From NCBI RefSeq assembly GCF_009931435.1, contig NZ_CP043414.1: a stretch of 64,000 bases of DNA. One strand, written 5' to 3'. The DNA is from Escherichia coli (GTDB lineage: Bacteria > Pseudomonadota > Gammaproteobacteria > Enterobacterales > Enterobacteriaceae). This document shows, in pieces, positions 22,067 to 28,348 of this stretch (position 1 is the stretch's first letter; the number at the start of each line of letters is the position of its first letter). The translations under genes were made by a program, and so were the position numbers. The notes beneath the pieces are model-generated. The model was given only the letters and a program-made list of their open reading frames with translations, was not told the DNA's origin and ran no database searches.

Positions 22067-22158
22067 TCACCACGCTAAAGCTCCGTGTCCACATAACCTA
22101 GGTCGGAGGCATGACCTTCTCTGGTTCGTCCCATCTAAAATGTCTATAAAGAACATGG

Positions 22159-22560
22159 TTATTCAATTATTTTTTCTTTGAGTTTATTCTCAATCCAGCT
22201 GTCTTTATACCTGATGAAAATTTGACACTCACCAATATTATCAATGTCTCCAGAATTTGTATTTGGAATTTGTCCAACTGCAACTATAGTTGATTCAAAA
22301 TATTCAACATTGACATTATCTGTAATTATTGAAATTATATAATCATCTGGAATAGAGCCATTAGGAGTTATATTGAAGAAACTAACACCTGAAAATACAA
22401 AATAACCATCTTCTAAGTCTTCATTATCATAAAAATTCCATTCTGTTGTACCATAGGCTATCCTTGAGATTAAATTAACCTGAATTCTAATTTGTTTACT
22501 CCATAAATCAAATTCAATTTTTTTTATTGCTCGATCACCAAGATATATTCTATCAAACAT
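22159..22560 (-). CDS. Hypothetical 133-aa protein in the Rhs-associated AT-rich region; candidate orphan immunity protein
   Basis: ATG start with AGGGGG 5 nt upstream; AT-rich; no recognisable family by eye. Confidence 0.55.
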   Translation of the reverse strand: MFDRIYLGDRAIKKIEFDLWSKQIRIQVNLISRIAYGTTEWNFYDNEDLEDGYFVFSGVSFFNITPNGSIPDDYIISIITDNVNVEYFESTIVAVGQIPNTNSGDIDNIGECQIFIRYKDSWIENKLKEKIIE

Positions 22561-23111
22561 ATTACCCCCCTATTCTAAAAATACTCAGGCATTCCGCACA
22601 TTATATCAGCCTCATCTTGATTGCTTCTCGTTTCCCGATACGGCGGCGCGGGGAGTCATAAAGGTAAGAAATTTCCAGCAGTACGGCGTCCTATTGTTCA
22701 CGGCGGTAATGCACCAGCCAGTATTGGCTATCGTAGTGATAACCGTGTAACCTGCCGCCGCATCGCGTATCTAATGTTCATTCTTTTCCATAAACCGTCC
22801 GTACACATTGTGATAGTAAAAATACAATACATCTTTGCTGATGCGGTTATTCTGCTGCATGTGGGGAGCGCCGAATACTGCTCCCGGTATGGCCAGTAAT
22901 TACTATTTAGTACGACGTTAGGGGGAGTCAATTAATCTCACAGATACTTCAAGTAACAGATGAAAATCGCTCCTGAAATGAAAAAAGAAATTTTTTTGAA
23001 TGTGTTCCTGTCAAATCAAGTGGTTTTTTCGTCGATATGTAGAGTCATATTGTAAACAAAATTGTTACGAAACACACCTTGGTAAAATATTTGAATCGAC
23101 TGTACAGTGGA

Positions 23112-23339
23112 TTATTTTGTGTGTATTACATTCAACACTTGCCCATCTTTTTTCGCTATTAGTATTGTAAAATTTCCTCCTAACGTCTTCGGTTGTTTTC
23201 CCTCGATTTTCCAACAATTATTGTCATCTGTAATACTATATGGTTTCTGAAATTCTGCTTTTTCTTTCCCGTATACATATTTAATGTAAACATATGATAA
23301 TTCCAAAGCCATTTCACGACTATTTACTAAAATTTCCAC
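23112..23339 (-). pseudogene. 5'-truncated paralog of the 21211..21609 secreted-protein gene (signal peptide lost)
   Basis: GTG-initiated 75-aa ORF VEILVNSREMALELSYVYIKYVYGKEKAEFQKPYSI...; homology to the paralog continues 6 codons upstream (VSGKENP) to an in-frame stop inside the palindrome. Confidence 0.6.
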
Positions 23340-23582: not shown

Positions 23583-24152
23583 TTATTTTTCTTCACTACG
23601 AAGCAGTTCATGCTGTATTTTTGTTAAACATTCGTAAGACTCATCTTTGTTCGGGAGATGTGCTGTCATTCGAGCATAAGTTGGCTTCTCATCTTTAAAA
23701 TATTTAACCATGATTGAATTATCAAGGACTGCCAACAACTGAGCTGGATCACTGCTCTTTTTTTGATAGATACCCGCTCTTATATAACTTCTAAACCGAT
23801 CGCCGAGAAACGCCGTTTTTTCTGCTGTATTTATCAACTCCTGCAACGTTCCTTTGATGGCATGATTTTCATTAAGGCGTAGTGACCCAACGCGAATTAA
23901 GAGTCTCGCCCCGCTTGGTGTGAATTTATTATTTTTACATGTACCCAGTTCTGTTTGCCAATAATACTCACCGATGTCCTCATTCTGATACCATCTCCAC
24001 ATGGCTTTATTATTTAAGACAGGAAACGCGGAAAAAATAGTACCCTTAGCGAAAATAGTAAAACAATCATGATCTTTAGCTTGTATTTCGCAATCAGCTA
24101 TAGCACCAAAACTAACAAATATCATCAGCAAAAAGAACAAAAATCTTTTCAT
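23583..24152 (-). CDS. Predicted secreted immunity protein for the RhsB C-terminal toxin (yhhH-like position)
   Basis: 189-aa ORF with Sec signal peptide [21 protein letters not shown]; its ATG overlaps the rhsB stop (ATGA at 24152..24149), typical toxin-immunity coupling; AT-rich. Confidence 0.7.
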
Positions 24153-27100
24153 TTTCTTATTCCTCTCGATGTTCTCTGTTTCATTTTAGCTAAAATTTCA
24201 CCCAAATCATCTATCCCTGCTGTTGCTGGCCCATCGGGTTTATTAATGTCTGGGAATAAATAGGGTTCTGCACAAGTATATCCTGGTGGTAATTGAGTTG
24301 TTGGCCAATTTGTCTGTGGCAGGTAATCACTTGCTGTCTTTGTATCCATCCCTGGATACTGGGGATCATCCTGTGGCGTACAAGTCAGATTTGGTTTTAC
24401 CCACTTCCTGCAATACAGTGTGTAGTCGTAAGGGCTTAATGCTCTGAAGAATGTTTTGAAAACATTAGGCGCACTACTGGCCTGGTCAATAGGATATGGC
24501 AGTCTTAATTGTTTCGCTATGTCTGGCAATTTACTTGGATCGGGCGTAGGCGGTTTGTTGGGTCTCGCTCCATATCCGCCATTATTTAAGTGTCCATATT
24601 TTGATGCCAGTCCCATTGAATCTATATACTGAACCGGATTCAACGGATACTGATAAAAATTCCACCCGCCTTCCAGCCCAATCGGATCCTGAGTGATATA
24701 CCGCCCCTGCAGCGGGTCATAATAGCGATGGCGGTTGTAATACAGGCCGGACTCCTCCTCATACTGCTGACCCGGCAGGCGGATGAGCTGCTGCAGCTGG
24801 TGCGGGTTCTCTTCATTCAGCAGGTTGCCCCACTCATCGTATTCTGCGCACCATTCTGTTGCCCCTTCCGTGCTGACAAGCGCCAGCGGCAGGCCGCGAT
24901 GGTCGCAGTGGTACAGGTGGATTTTTCGCGCCGGCGTGTACACCGGGTCCATCTGGTTTTGCATCTGCTCCACCGTCAGGCCGCACGATGCCAGCCAGCG
25001 GCGGCTTTCCTCACTCACCCGGTCAGCCAGGATTTCACTTTCCAGCCGGTCGGGCATCTGCACCAGCACCGGCGGGAACACCACATGGCCACCGTCTTCA
25101 CCGCCGGACTGCTGAAGAGCGTCCGCCAGGCTGCGGCGCTGCGTTTTCGCCAGCTCACCGGTGGCGGTTTCAACTCTGATGAGTGGTGCGAAGCTCCCCG
25201 GCTGATAAACCGTCTGGATGCGGGTTCTGTCGTTCTGTATCGTGGTCAGCCGGTCGCCGTCCCAGCCGTACCAGGTCACTTCCGGTTTCCGTGACAGCGA
25301 CATCCAGCCCGTCAGGTCCCGTTCACGCCGCCACACCCGTTTTGCCACCCTGCGGCCCAGCGGGTCGTAAAGATAGCGACTTTCGACCAGCGGCTCTGCA
25401 TATTGTGTCCGCGTGTAGTGCACCAGCCGGTGCTGACTGTCGTAATGGTACCGGTGAGTCCGCTCATCATCCGTGCGGATAACCCCTTCCGGGATGAGGT
25501 CGGTTTTCTCCGTCAGCCTGCCGTGACGGTCATACCGGTAAAGATAGTGCGCGTCACGTGTTATACGATTATCCGGCCATATGCAGAGGGTGCTGTCCGG
25601 GTGCAGCTCCGGGTCAGGCAGGCGGTTACCTGCCGGGTCCGTGGCATACGGGATGCGGATATCCAGATTTGAGGTGGTGGTGTGGACGCCGGTCAGCCTG
25701 CCGGAGTCGCTGTAGCTGTAACTCCGGGTCTGGCGCGGGCTGCTGATGCGAATGAGTTCGCCGTTGTCGTTCCAGGTGTAATCGCGGTCATACTGCAGGC
25801 TGTTCAGGTGCTGGCTCTGTAACTGCCCGGCAGGGGTGTAAGCGGTGGTGAGTTCATAACGGCCGAAGCTGCGCAGCGTTTCCCGGTGCAGGCGGTCGCG
25901 GGTGAAATCCACCAGCGGTGTGTCGCCGAGTTTCATCCCTGCCAGGTAACCACTGCCATAAGTCAGCCATTCCACGGCGGGCAGGCTGTCCGGTATACAG
26001 CGGTTCGCCAGCCCCTGCGCGTTGTACGCATGTCTGGTTTCATGCTGCCAGAGCAGTGCTTCCGTCTGCGGGTGATGCACCGTCTGGCGCTCACCGGTCA
26101 GGCGGCCTTTCTCATCATACCCGTAATGCACCGTCACCCGGTGCCCTTCGCTGAGATGGCTGATGCCTGTCAGCCAGCCGCGTTCGTCGTACCGCCACTG
26201 TTCTGCGGTTTCACCATTCACCGTTCGCTGCGTGATGCGGTCTGCTTCGTCATAGTGCCAGTGGGTGACCAGTCCCTCATCCTCGCTGCGGATAAGTTTG
26301 CCGGTCAGGTCGTGGTGATAACGCTGTGTGCGGCCGTCAAAGCCGGTTTCCTGTATCAGCCGGTCGAGTACATCGTAACGGAAGGTGGTGTGGCTGCCGT
26401 TTTCGTTTGTCAGGCGGATGACCCGTCCTGCAGCATCGTATTCCATACTGCGGGTCAGCCCGCCCTGCGTGGTACGGACGGCCTTTCCCCACGCATCGTA
26501 CTGTGCCCCGTATCTGCTGCCGTCCGGGGCAATGACGGTGGTCAGGTCACCGGCGGCGTTGTATTCATACCGCGTTTCATGGCCCTGCGTGTCTTTCACC
26601 GCAATTAACTGTCCATGGCTGTCGTATGCGCGGCACTGGCTCAGGCCTTCCTCGCGGTGCACCGCCGTCATCTGCCCGAAGCGGTCATGGTCATAACGGG
26701 TCTGGTAGCCGGAACAGTCGGTGAAGGTCAGCAACTGACCGTAACGGCTCCACGTCATGGTTTTCCGGCTGCCGGTGGCATCTTCCGTTGCGCAGGGGAA
26801 GTCACTGTGTGGATTATCATAACGGTAGCGGATGATATCGCCGTCAGGGGCAGTTTCCTGAATCAGACGGCCGGATTCATCATATTCCCGGCGTATTTCC
26901 AGCCCGTCAGGCCCGGTGGCTGACGTTAACTGGTTGTGGTGGTTATAGTAAAACGCCGATGCCCTGCCATCCGGCGTGGTGATGCGCGTGATGAGTCCCG
27001 TCACCACATCCGGGCTGTATTCTGTTGTCCGGCCTGCGGCATCCGTCTGTGTCCTGAGCCTGCCCACCGCGTCAAACTGACTCTGCGTGACGCTGCCGTC

Positions 27101-28348
27101 CGCGTGTTCCTTTTTCACCACCCGCTTCAGCCCGCCTTCGCCTGCGGTATGCAGGACTTCATGGCGGTCCAGGCTGTCGGTGATGGTGATGCGGTCTTTC
27201 TCATACTGATACGTGTAGCTTAAGCCTGCCGGGTTTAGCTGTTCTGTCACCCGCCCGTCGCTGTCGTAACGGTAACGGATTTCCGGCCGGCCCGTGTGAC
27301 GGTGCGCCACCATCCGGCCCCGGTATTTATCATCGTAAGTAAAGCTGCGCACCTGTGTATTGCTGCGGTCATACACCGCCGCCAGTTCGCCGCGCGGCGT
27401 CCAGCCATAGCGCACCAGCGGCGTGGCTGGCAGGTTGTCCGGGTATTCCGGGTCGTGCGTCAGCCACACGGCAGACAGACGGATACCGTTGTCCCGGCCA
27501 TATTCCGTGTAGTCCGGCAGGGTATCAGGAAAAGCGGACTGTTCCGCCCCGCCGGAAGAGGCCTGCTGCCGGGCCTCTTCTGCCCGCTGCGCCTGCGTGG
27601 TCAGTGCCAGCCGGAAGTGACGCCCGGCACCATCCGTCACGCCGGTGATTTCGCCGCTGAATTCACCGGCGGCTTCGCGGTGAAACGTCTGTGTGCGCCC
27701 GAAGCGGTCCACCAGCCCGGTCAGTACCCGGTACGGCGGCAGCGGCGCGGGCAGCACCTCATCCGCCTCCGGCACCCGCTCACACCAGCCGAGTACCCAC
27801 CACGGCCCCTGCGGACTGTTCGTCGCCAGATAACGATGCGGACTCAGGCGAAGCTCTTCCGGCAGCGCCTGCCAGAGTGCGGCCAGCCGGTGACCTTCAT
27901 CCAGTCTCAGGACGCCGCCGCGCACCAGCCAGAGTGACTCGCTGCGGCTGTAACCGTCCTCACCGGGAAACAGGTGCTCAAAATACAGGCTTCTGCCGCC
28001 GTTATCACTGAGTATCAGTGTGTTATCGCGCAGCTGTAAGCGGATATCCGCAGGCATTTTCCAGCCGGGGCCGAGAATACCCACCGGCGCGGGCGTTTTT
28101 GTCCGGTAACTGCTGTACGTGCGGGAGAGGATGAACGGCAGCGGTCCGGGCAGGGCAATGTCTGTCTCGCCGGGAAGGACCTTTGCACCGAGCAGGGGAT
28201 TGACCGGATGGCCGGACGTCACCCCGCCGGGGCACACCGAACAGGCCACGCCGGTGGGGGCACCAATACGTACCCCGGCTGAACCCTGAACAATGCTACC
28301 GCCATACTGCGTCATGTCGCCCTGACGCGCCGCCGGTTTTCCGCTCAT
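24149..28348 (-). CDS. rhsB: Rhs-family polymorphic toxin (RhsB-like): N-terminal domain, YD-repeat shell, core ending in the DPxGL motif ([17 protein letters not shown]), and a roughly 177-aa C-terminal variable toxin domain
   Basis: 1399-aa ORF; numerous YD repeats (RYxYDxxGRL); GC-rich core against an AT-poorer C-terminal tip; RBS aagga upstream. Confidence 0.92.

Follow-up and report, generated by a model that had tools for sequence, protein, structure and literature searches.

Discussions of Rhs cages mostly treat them as carriers of enzymes that act in the cytoplasm. The element described here consists of a complete rhs gene together with the adjoining gene ybfC on the minus strand of a 64,000-nucleotide stretch of Escherichia coli DNA (contig NZ_CP043414.1 of assembly GCF_009931435.1; the whole stretch is hereafter referred to as the window). 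Its payload would represent a less common Rhs case, since the cognate immunity protein is predicted to be exported. The reading proposed from the sequence, with a probability of about 0.7, is that of an Rhs payload which acts in the periplasm and against which exported YbfC gives immunity.

The module is not new as a sequence, as its variable C-terminal tip is that of K-12 YbfO and EDL933 RhsC and its partner is the named gene ybfC; both pairs carry locus names (b0703/b0704 in K-12, z0847/z0853 in EDL933) and the architecture is that of a standard polymorphic toxin. The K-12 pair has the same tip, the same partner and the same ATGA overlap as the window module, but K-12 ybfO is a 5'-truncated orphan at the rhsC locus, whereas the tip in the window lies in frame on a complete Rhs at the rhsB locus. 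In EDL933, a strain possessing a type VI secretion system (T6SS), the available part of PMC7216683 lists RhsC (z0847) and “RhsCI” (z0853) in silico as a proposed T6SS effector-immunity pair with no function found, and in that part a signal peptide on RhsCI is not mentioned. The EDL933 pair is taken to be the same module because the rhsC-specific primer given there matches the tip exactly (window 24547-24566); like the window element it involves a full-length “neighbourless” Rhs, but at the rhsC instead of the rhsB locus. K-12 RhsB and YhhH occupy the same chromosomal site as the window element and share a core that is 95% identical as far as the autocleavage motif. The K-12 RhsB tip is nevertheless a different one and its immunity protein belongs to another family (PF15631 by K-12 annotation), yhhH being left as a downstream orphan in the window. 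The supplements of a Salmonella T6SS effector catalogue (PMC12994826), as far as available, contain no mention of ybfC. The literature searched contains neither a function nor a family assignment for this Rhs payload, nor an explicit argument for its periplasmic action.

Among characterised systems, Tse5 (RhsP1) with Tsi5 of Pseudomonas aeruginosa likewise combines an Rhs cage, a DUF6531 plug and DPXG-X18/19-DPXG autocleavage; its ~16-kDa fragment acts from the periplasmic side and, as in the window Rhs, its N-terminus is devoid of a membrane-translocation module (PMC10684867). However, Tse5-CT is a hydrophobic, membrane-inserting pore former, whereas the window tip is hydrophilic (19-residue Kyte-Doolittle maximum 0.14) and its partner is predicted to be a soluble, exported beta-sandwich. 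The same logic of an effector without signal peptide, an exported immunity protein and a periplasmic route to the target is found in Tae/Tai, Tge/Tgi, Tlde1/Tldi1, Tle/Tli and Tox-Act1/Imm-Act1 (PMC6833914, PMC11996579). These cargo effectors are mostly stand-alone enzymes of recognised folds with Cys-His or Glu catalytic residues, whereas the window tip is fused to Rhs, matches no Pfam family and has no conserved His.

Pairing of the tip with a partner predicted to be exported

The association of the tip with YbfC was followed over seven independent, divergent loci (E. coli, Phytobacter ursingii, a Ralstonia metagenome-assembled genome (MAG), another NCBI assembly and three metagenomic contigs). 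The tip is followed directly by a YbfC homologue in all seven, with a 4-nt overlap in six, while the remaining downstream genes vary from locus to locus. Toxin-domain identity (38-73%) and immunity identity (21-68%) over the divergent pairs are correlated (Pearson 0.87), a figure given without p-value since the pairs are not independent. YbfC profile searches recover essentially only proteins of the same tip context, and when profiles were used to look further afield, for remote relatives of YbfC that might adjoin toxins of known type, only partners of the same tip family came up. At the level of sequence, a toxin-immunity pair would be expected to behave in this way. A different role for YbfC, as an unrelated secreted protein or accessory factor with the true immunity gene located elsewhere, is highly improbable: binding and protection are indeed inferred and the Ig-like fold of its model is generic, occurring in many binding proteins, but YbfC homologues are the only genes conserved beside the tip in this comparison, and their relatives occur essentially only where the tip family does.

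YbfC homologues have also been found without an upstream tip at three loci (L013, L014 and L015, from a Citrobacter sp. MAG, Pseudocitrobacter vendiensis and Escherichia sp. MOD1-EC7003, respectively), and second tandem copies follow the tip-immunity pair at two others (L009, 5404-5976; L019, 2464-3072). Such tip-less and tandem copies look like a stockpiling of orphan immunity genes. Copies of ybfO-ybfC with 97% protein identity to E. coli, present on the short contigs L011 and L012 (MAGs labelled Flavobacterium psychrophilum and Candidatus Nanosynbacter), almost certainly stem from E. coli DNA contaminating the bins.

The coordinates, the open reading frames (ORFs) of 1399 and 189 amino acids (aa) and the ATGA overlap given in an earlier note on this DNA are all present in the sequence as described. 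The ybfC start codon (ATG, 24152-24150) and the rhs stop codon (TGA, 24151-24149) share the tetranucleotide ATGA (24152-24149), which amounts to a 4-nt overlap, and a GAGGA Shine-Dalgarno sequence (24165-24161) is situated 8 nt 5' of the ybfC start. The junction reads ...CGA GAG GAA TAA GAA AAT GAA AAG..., the rhs frame ending in AGA AAA TGA. An ATGA-type overlap of 4 nt is also found in K-12, strain TUM13936, Phytobacter and the metagenomic loci L004, L009 and L010. The combination of overlap and Shine-Dalgarno sequence points to translational coupling of ybfC to rhs.

The 20-residue N-terminus of YbfC comprises an n-region with K2 and R3, a hydrophobic core of 13 residues (Kyte-Doolittle maximum 2.95 for an 11-residue stretch, at residues 4-14) and A-I-A at positions -3 to -1 before D20, and neither a lipobox nor a twin-arginine motif nor a second hydrophobic segment was seen in the protein. 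This tripartite layout bears out the clear Sec signal peptide proposed earlier for the 189-aa protein, and it is common to the family: in all 28 homologues a charged n-region leads into a hydrophobic stretch, with small residues at -3/-1 in most of them, the distant members from locus L019 being less clear in this respect. Furthermore, a Salmonella homologue is annotated as “periplasmic protein” and ybfC has been listed as a “putative secreted protein” (PMC6033998).

Mature YbfC contains four cysteines, of which C30 and C175 are invariant (28/28), while C21 and C72 occur together in 23 of the 28 homologues, are jointly missing from three and are ambiguous in two; this pattern would fit two disulfides. 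The structure model of YbfC is confident (predicted local distance difference test, pLDDT, 85.7) and corresponds to an Ig-like beta-sandwich, while Pfam, NCBIfam and the PDB sequences gave no match to YbfC, either with the single sequence or with profiles. Judging from sequence and model, YbfC fits a soluble, oxidised Ig-like binder, as expected of an immunity protein directed against a periplasm-acting effector. As a general rule, the location of an immunity protein tells in which compartment the effector finds its target (PMC6833914), and the toxin is placed in the periplasm or at the envelope because its cognate immunity protein appears to be Sec-exported.

Carrier protein, predicted release and delivery

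The carrier belongs to the Rhs polymorphic toxins, with a DUF6531 plug (PF20148, E 1.9e-17), multiple RHS/YD repeats (12 PF05593 matches at E <= 0.001) and an RHS core domain (PF03527, E 5e-14). The core was earlier taken to end at DPIGL (aa 1221-1225, within the 17-residue core stretch quoted at that time), leaving a tip of roughly 177 aa. Neither value holds, as the piece following DPIGL is 174 aa long and its residues 2-22 still match NCBIfam RHS_core. The Rhs aspartyl-protease motif has been described as DPXG-X18-DPXG, and Tse5 is cut after the Leu that follows the second DPXG (L1168|I1169; PMC10684867). The corresponding motif in the window is DPIG(1221)-X18-DSMG(1243)-L1247, in which Ser replaces the second Pro; the second half reads DPMG, DPLG, DSLG or DALG in relatives. 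Since both the RHS_core match and the protease motif extend 22 residues past DPIGL, the conserved core runs to DSMG-L and the toxin is placed after it. The predicted cleavage after L1247 would yield a C-terminal fragment of 152 aa (Rhs 1248-1399, window 24152-24607), which is the variable tip.

The 45 aa that precede DUF6531 are rich in Gly and Cys and contain a literal P-A-A-R at aa 5-8. A hydrophobic or prePAAR-like segment is absent from the whole Rhs (19-residue Kyte-Doolittle maximum 0.98). In the literature, the neighbourless Rhs class of E. coli is related to the T6SS2 Rhs and described as bearing a PAAR motif, and Rhs-CT5, a neighbourless Rhs of the same clade, takes part in T6SS-linked antagonism in O157:H7 (PMC6730261); which VgrG carries the neighbourless Rhs is unclear according to PMC7216683. 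Phytobacter ursingii has an Rhs with the same tip and a YbfC homologue; a vgrG (TIGR03361, E 1.6e-150) is situated directly upstream of this Rhs, which is 66% identical to the window Rhs over its full length and shares its N-terminus. At the metagenomic locus L004, an orphan pair adjoins genes for VgrG, DUF2169 and a PAAR-like protein. Delivery by a T6SS is likely, because relatives adjoin vgrG and the literature ties neighbourless Rhs proteins to this system.

The gene order of L004 (1-8981) is main Rhs, ankyrin-repeat gene, orphan Rhs C-terminus with a 72-aa gene, YbfO-type orphan with a YbfC-like gene, vgrG, DUF2169 and PAAR-like toxin gene. It is a compact stacking of orphans beside a second T6SS spike cassette.

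The module might also be a silent relic in this particular strain, with an Rhs that is unexpressed or undeliverable for want of a matching T6SS, VgrG or chaperone, and a ybfC retained against neighbours that do fire. This agrees with the lack of T6SS genes in the window and beside rhs, with a scan for promoters and terminators around the junction that remained at chance level, with the K-12 situation of an orphan pseudogene tip and an intact ybfC, and with the loci in Citrobacter, Pseudocitrobacter and Escherichia sp. that have ybfC alone. Nevertheless, it is rather unlikely, as the rhs ORF of 4.2 kb is intact and free of frameshifts, other E. coli copies of the tip are identical to it or share 99.3% identity with it, rhsC and ybfC transcripts were reported to be strongly up in some Shiga toxin-producing E. 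coli strains (PMC6033998) and Rhs-CT5 of the same clade mediates antagonism in O157:H7 (PMC6730261). Moreover, it bears on activity in one strain and not on the identity of the module.

The putative toxin domain and its proposed site of action

The tip was earlier described as Cys-containing, Pro- and Tyr-rich and AT-richer than the core, which agrees with its composition (14.5% Pro, 6.6% Tyr, 3 Cys) and with GC fractions of 0.62 for the core, 0.43 for the tip, 0.41 for its 105-aa domain and 0.37 for ybfC. The 152-aa fragment is made up of a Pro-rich linker of 47 aa, variable in sequence and length in the alignment of the tip family (A3), and a conserved domain of 105 aa. Conserved motifs of this domain are SPYDYxxYCxKW, PGxDxKTxxDYxP, LPxGYxCxEPYxFPxL, AxAGxDD and a C-terminal RK, along with three conserved Cys; in the numbering of the fragment, P107, G109, C112, A130, D134, D94, P97, F118 and R151 are invariant or nearly so, and C66 and usually C76 are also kept. 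The extreme C-terminus R-G-x-R-K (window 24149-24175) is conserved even in relatives of ~35% identity, which may reflect a dual coding/translation-signal constraint and not toxin function, because the same bases encode GAGGA, which falls on the R-G codons, and the immunity start codon.

The tip family is small: when 1.84 billion representative proteins were searched with a profile, 27 representatives were obtained. The matches whose sequences were read are C-terminal ends of Rhs proteins or short fragments, and one weak match (E 5.6e-4), in a protein of 2084 aa, is confined to the Pro-rich linker region. Searches of Pfam, NCBIfam and the PDB sequences with single sequences, with profiles and member by member gave no match to the tip, and none of 19 family members matches Pfam, so that the earlier statement that the tip belongs to no recognisable family holds for these resources.

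Various known toxin types were considered for the tip and rejected. The lack of any conserved His column in alignment A3 excludes Cys-His hydrolases (Tae1-4, TseH and Tlde1 type) as well as nucleases that depend on His; in addition, Pfam gave no NlpC/P60, CHAP or YkuD match. For nucleases in general (HNH, WHH, AHH, BECR and others), there is no Pfam or NCBIfam domain and the partner bears a signal peptide. A glutamate-dependent muramidase was dropped and a conserved catalytic Glu at position 114 is excluded, since relatives have K, S or T in place of E114. The “PYDY..YCR” of the tip superficially resembles the DxYDx5HR of colicin M, but the spacing differs and the His is absent, which speaks against a colicin-M-like phosphatase. 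Finally, a pore-former or other membrane-inserting toxin (Tse5-CT, Ssp6, Tme or colicin type) can be excluded with reasonable confidence on the low hydrophobicity and high Pro content of the sequence.

The earlier note had concluded that an Rhs toxin with a Sec-exported cognate immunity protein acts on the envelope or in the periplasm and not as a cytoplasmic nuclease. This gains support from the co-inheritance of the pair, the signal peptides in 28/28 homologues, the cysteine pairs, the Ig-like model and a tip without nuclease domain, conserved His or hydrophobic segment. An improbable alternative is that the toxin acts in the cytoplasm, YbfC either intercepting it in the periplasm on entry or having an N-terminus that serves as an uncleaved membrane anchor. 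Most characterised toxins carried by Rhs proteins are cytoplasmic enzymes (PMC11996579, PMC10684867), an Rhs of the same core class in enterohaemorrhagic E. coli (EHEC) bears an RNase tip (PMC6730261), and the weak AlphaFold2 topology, a helix followed by three strands, would be compatible with a small RNase-like fold. On the other hand, no family member has a nuclease, ADP-ribosyltransferase or deaminase domain or a conserved His, no transmembrane or prePAAR-type hydrophobic region that might take a payload across the inner membrane is present in the Rhs, and YbfC, with its A-x-A site and conserved cysteine pairs, is consistent with a soluble and oxidised protein of the periplasm. We know of no precedent for the interception of a toxin by its immunity protein in the periplasm, which also counts against this alternative.

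Under the preferred periplasmic reading, the domain content shows the 1399-aa Rhs to be a YD-repeat cage plugged by DUF6531, within which DPIG-X18-DSMG would cut after L1247 and free the 152-aa fragment, by analogy to Tse5, RhsA and Rhs1. The loaded cage would be fired by a T6SS into a neighbouring Gram-negative cell, as suggested by the relatives beside vgrG. The fragment may then remain in the target periplasm, where its soluble, basic, Pro/Tyr-rich domain of 105 aa might fold, probably with a C66-C112 disulfide, and damage an envelope target. For this target, the peptidoglycan/lipid-II pathway would be a tentative best guess, preferred to membrane insertion. In the producer and its kin, ybfC would be translated via coupling to rhs, and its product would be Sec-exported, cut after A-I-A19, oxidised to two disulfides and able to bind the toxin one-to-one in the periplasm and block it. 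Regarding this immunity step, the export signal, cysteine pattern, fold and co-inheritance are displayed by the sequences and the model, while binding and protection are putative; more generally, we infer toxicity, protection, export and delivery from sequence.

Several observations weigh against this interpretation. No vgrG, eagR or other T6SS gene is present in the window or near rhs in the collinear annotated genome, and the Pfam PAAR_motif does not match the Rhs N-terminus even at E <= 10. The same neighbourless core class carries cytoplasm-acting tips such as the Rhs-CT5 RNase of EHEC (PMC6730261), so the carrier itself is no indicator of a periplasmic target. The AlphaFold2 model of the tip is poor (pLDDT 55 overall and < 50 in the linker); its core region (pLDDT 66-78) suggests a helix, three strands and a helix, and no structural match to the model was found. 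Alignment A3 reveals no clearly catalytic set of residues, E114 not being invariant. The cell-wall or lipid-II guess derives only from exclusion and from the precedent of other periplasm-acting T6SS effectors. In the literature searched, no functional study of YbfO or YbfC was found.

History, spread and significance of the locus

The element occupies the E. coli rhsB position, where it is flanked by nikABCDE-nikR and, at the opposite end, by yhhJ-rbbA. The earlier designation RhsB is thus apt for the chromosomal position, but not for the payload, which corresponds to the K-12 ybfO/EDL933 RhsC tip with ybfC as partner. The nearest complete genome of the same arrangement is that of strain 2020CK-00188, in which the rhs counterpart is annotated as “RHS element core protein”. 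Homology to the K-12 rhsB DNA (95%) extends from nikR through the core to window position 24629 and resumes at 21649 with yhhH. The intervening ~3 kb (24628-21650) are inserted relative to K-12 rhsB and contain the YbfO-type tip, ybfC and the NTF2-fold, DUF6258 and pentapeptide-repeat genes. As shown by these breakpoints in the sequence, a cassette of YbfO tip and ybfC has recombined onto the rhsB core and displaced the K-12-type RhsB tip (C-terminal displacement), and this cassette replacement has left yhhH and others as downstream orphans. The resulting array of orphan immunity-type genes, recognised from the annotation of the near-identical 2020CK-00188 locus and from NCBIfam matches, spans 20864-23339 on the minus strand and lacks toxin tips, no further DPxGL motif being present on the minus strand between 20000 and 29000. 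The features of the locus are collected in Table 1.

Table 1. Features of the rhs-ybfC element and its surroundings (window coordinates; Rhs and YbfC residues in aa)
Feature	Coordinates	Strand	Basis
rhs ORF, full-length, 1399 aa + stop	24149-28348	minus	ORF list
ybfC, putative immunity ORF, 189 aa	23583-24152	minus	ORF list
DUF6531 N-terminal plug, Rhs 46-123	27980-28213	minus	Pfam PF20148, E 1.9e-17
RHS/YD repeat shell, Rhs 318-981	25406-27397	minus	Pfam PF05593 matches
Predicted autocleavage motif DPIG-X18-DSMG-L, Rhs 1221-1247	24608-24688	minus	Regular-expression search of translation
Pro-rich linker of predicted released fragment, Rhs 1248-1294	24467-24607	minus	Alignment A3, AlphaFold2
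Conserved 105-aa toxin domain (putative), Rhs 1295-1399	24152-24466	minus	Alignments A2 and A3
rhs-ybfC coupling junction (putative), GAGGA to ATGA	24149-24165	minus	Sequence read directly
ybfC predicted signal peptide, 1-19	24096-24152	minus	
ybfC mature protein (predicted), 170 aa	23586-24095	minus	
NTF2-fold immunity gene, orphan	23112-23339	minus	2020CK-00188 annotation, NCBIfam
DUF6258 gene, orphan	22159-22560	minus	2020CK-00188 annotation, NCBIfam
Pentapeptide-repeat gene, orphan; two pseudogene fragments in 2020CK-00188 annotation	21563-21940	minus	
YbbC/YhhH, cognate of K-12 RhsB tip, orphan	21211-21609	minus	
yrhC-like lyase fragment	20864-21121	minus	
Truncated ISAs1/H-repeat transposase yhhI, closes the rhs element	20344-20778	minus	NCBIfam transpos_ISAs1, E 3e-39

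Compared with its K-12 counterpart, the transposase gene yhhI has lost ~713 bp from its interior (junction 20391/20392); it is intact (1137 bp) in 2020CK-00188. Further along, the mechanically listed yhhJ ORF (window 18898-20190, plus strand) has 430 aa and a TTG start, while the gene as annotated, in K-12 as well as in 2020CK-00188, has 374 aa (1125 bp); the start in the list probably lies too far out and does not mark a genuine N-terminal extension.

The tip-ybfC module is present in 3508 of 5426 complete E. coli genomes (about 65%, with at least 80% of the module), where the annotation is “RHS element core protein” and “protein YbfC”. The K-12 copy, consisting of the orphan pseudogene ybfO (b0703) and an intact ybfC (b0704), lies behind rhsC-ybfB, and the window region 25654-23544 is 97.3% identical to it in DNA (tip 99.3%, ybfC 97.9%). 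In strain TUM13936, a full-length Rhs of 1399 aa with an identical tip is located at the rhsC locus. The differences among the E. coli copies are too few for dN/dS to be informative.

The general architecture and logic of this element are textbook polymorphic-toxin biology and no concept is changed by it. The module nevertheless resides in the best-studied bacterium, in K-12 as ybfO/ybfC and in EHEC as RhsC, and neither protein has a family assignment; knowledge of the target could for this reason uncover a new mode of attack on the Gram-negative envelope, and ybfC, long an orphan gene of K-12, would thereby gain a function. A speculative possibility is that the 105-aa YbfO-type domain founds a class of soluble periplasmic toxins with a new fold, which would be Rhs-delivered, disulfide-activated, directed at a novel T6SS envelope target and blocked by a new Ig-like immunity family, the pair being present, often as an orphan, in about two thirds of E. 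coli, K-12 among them.

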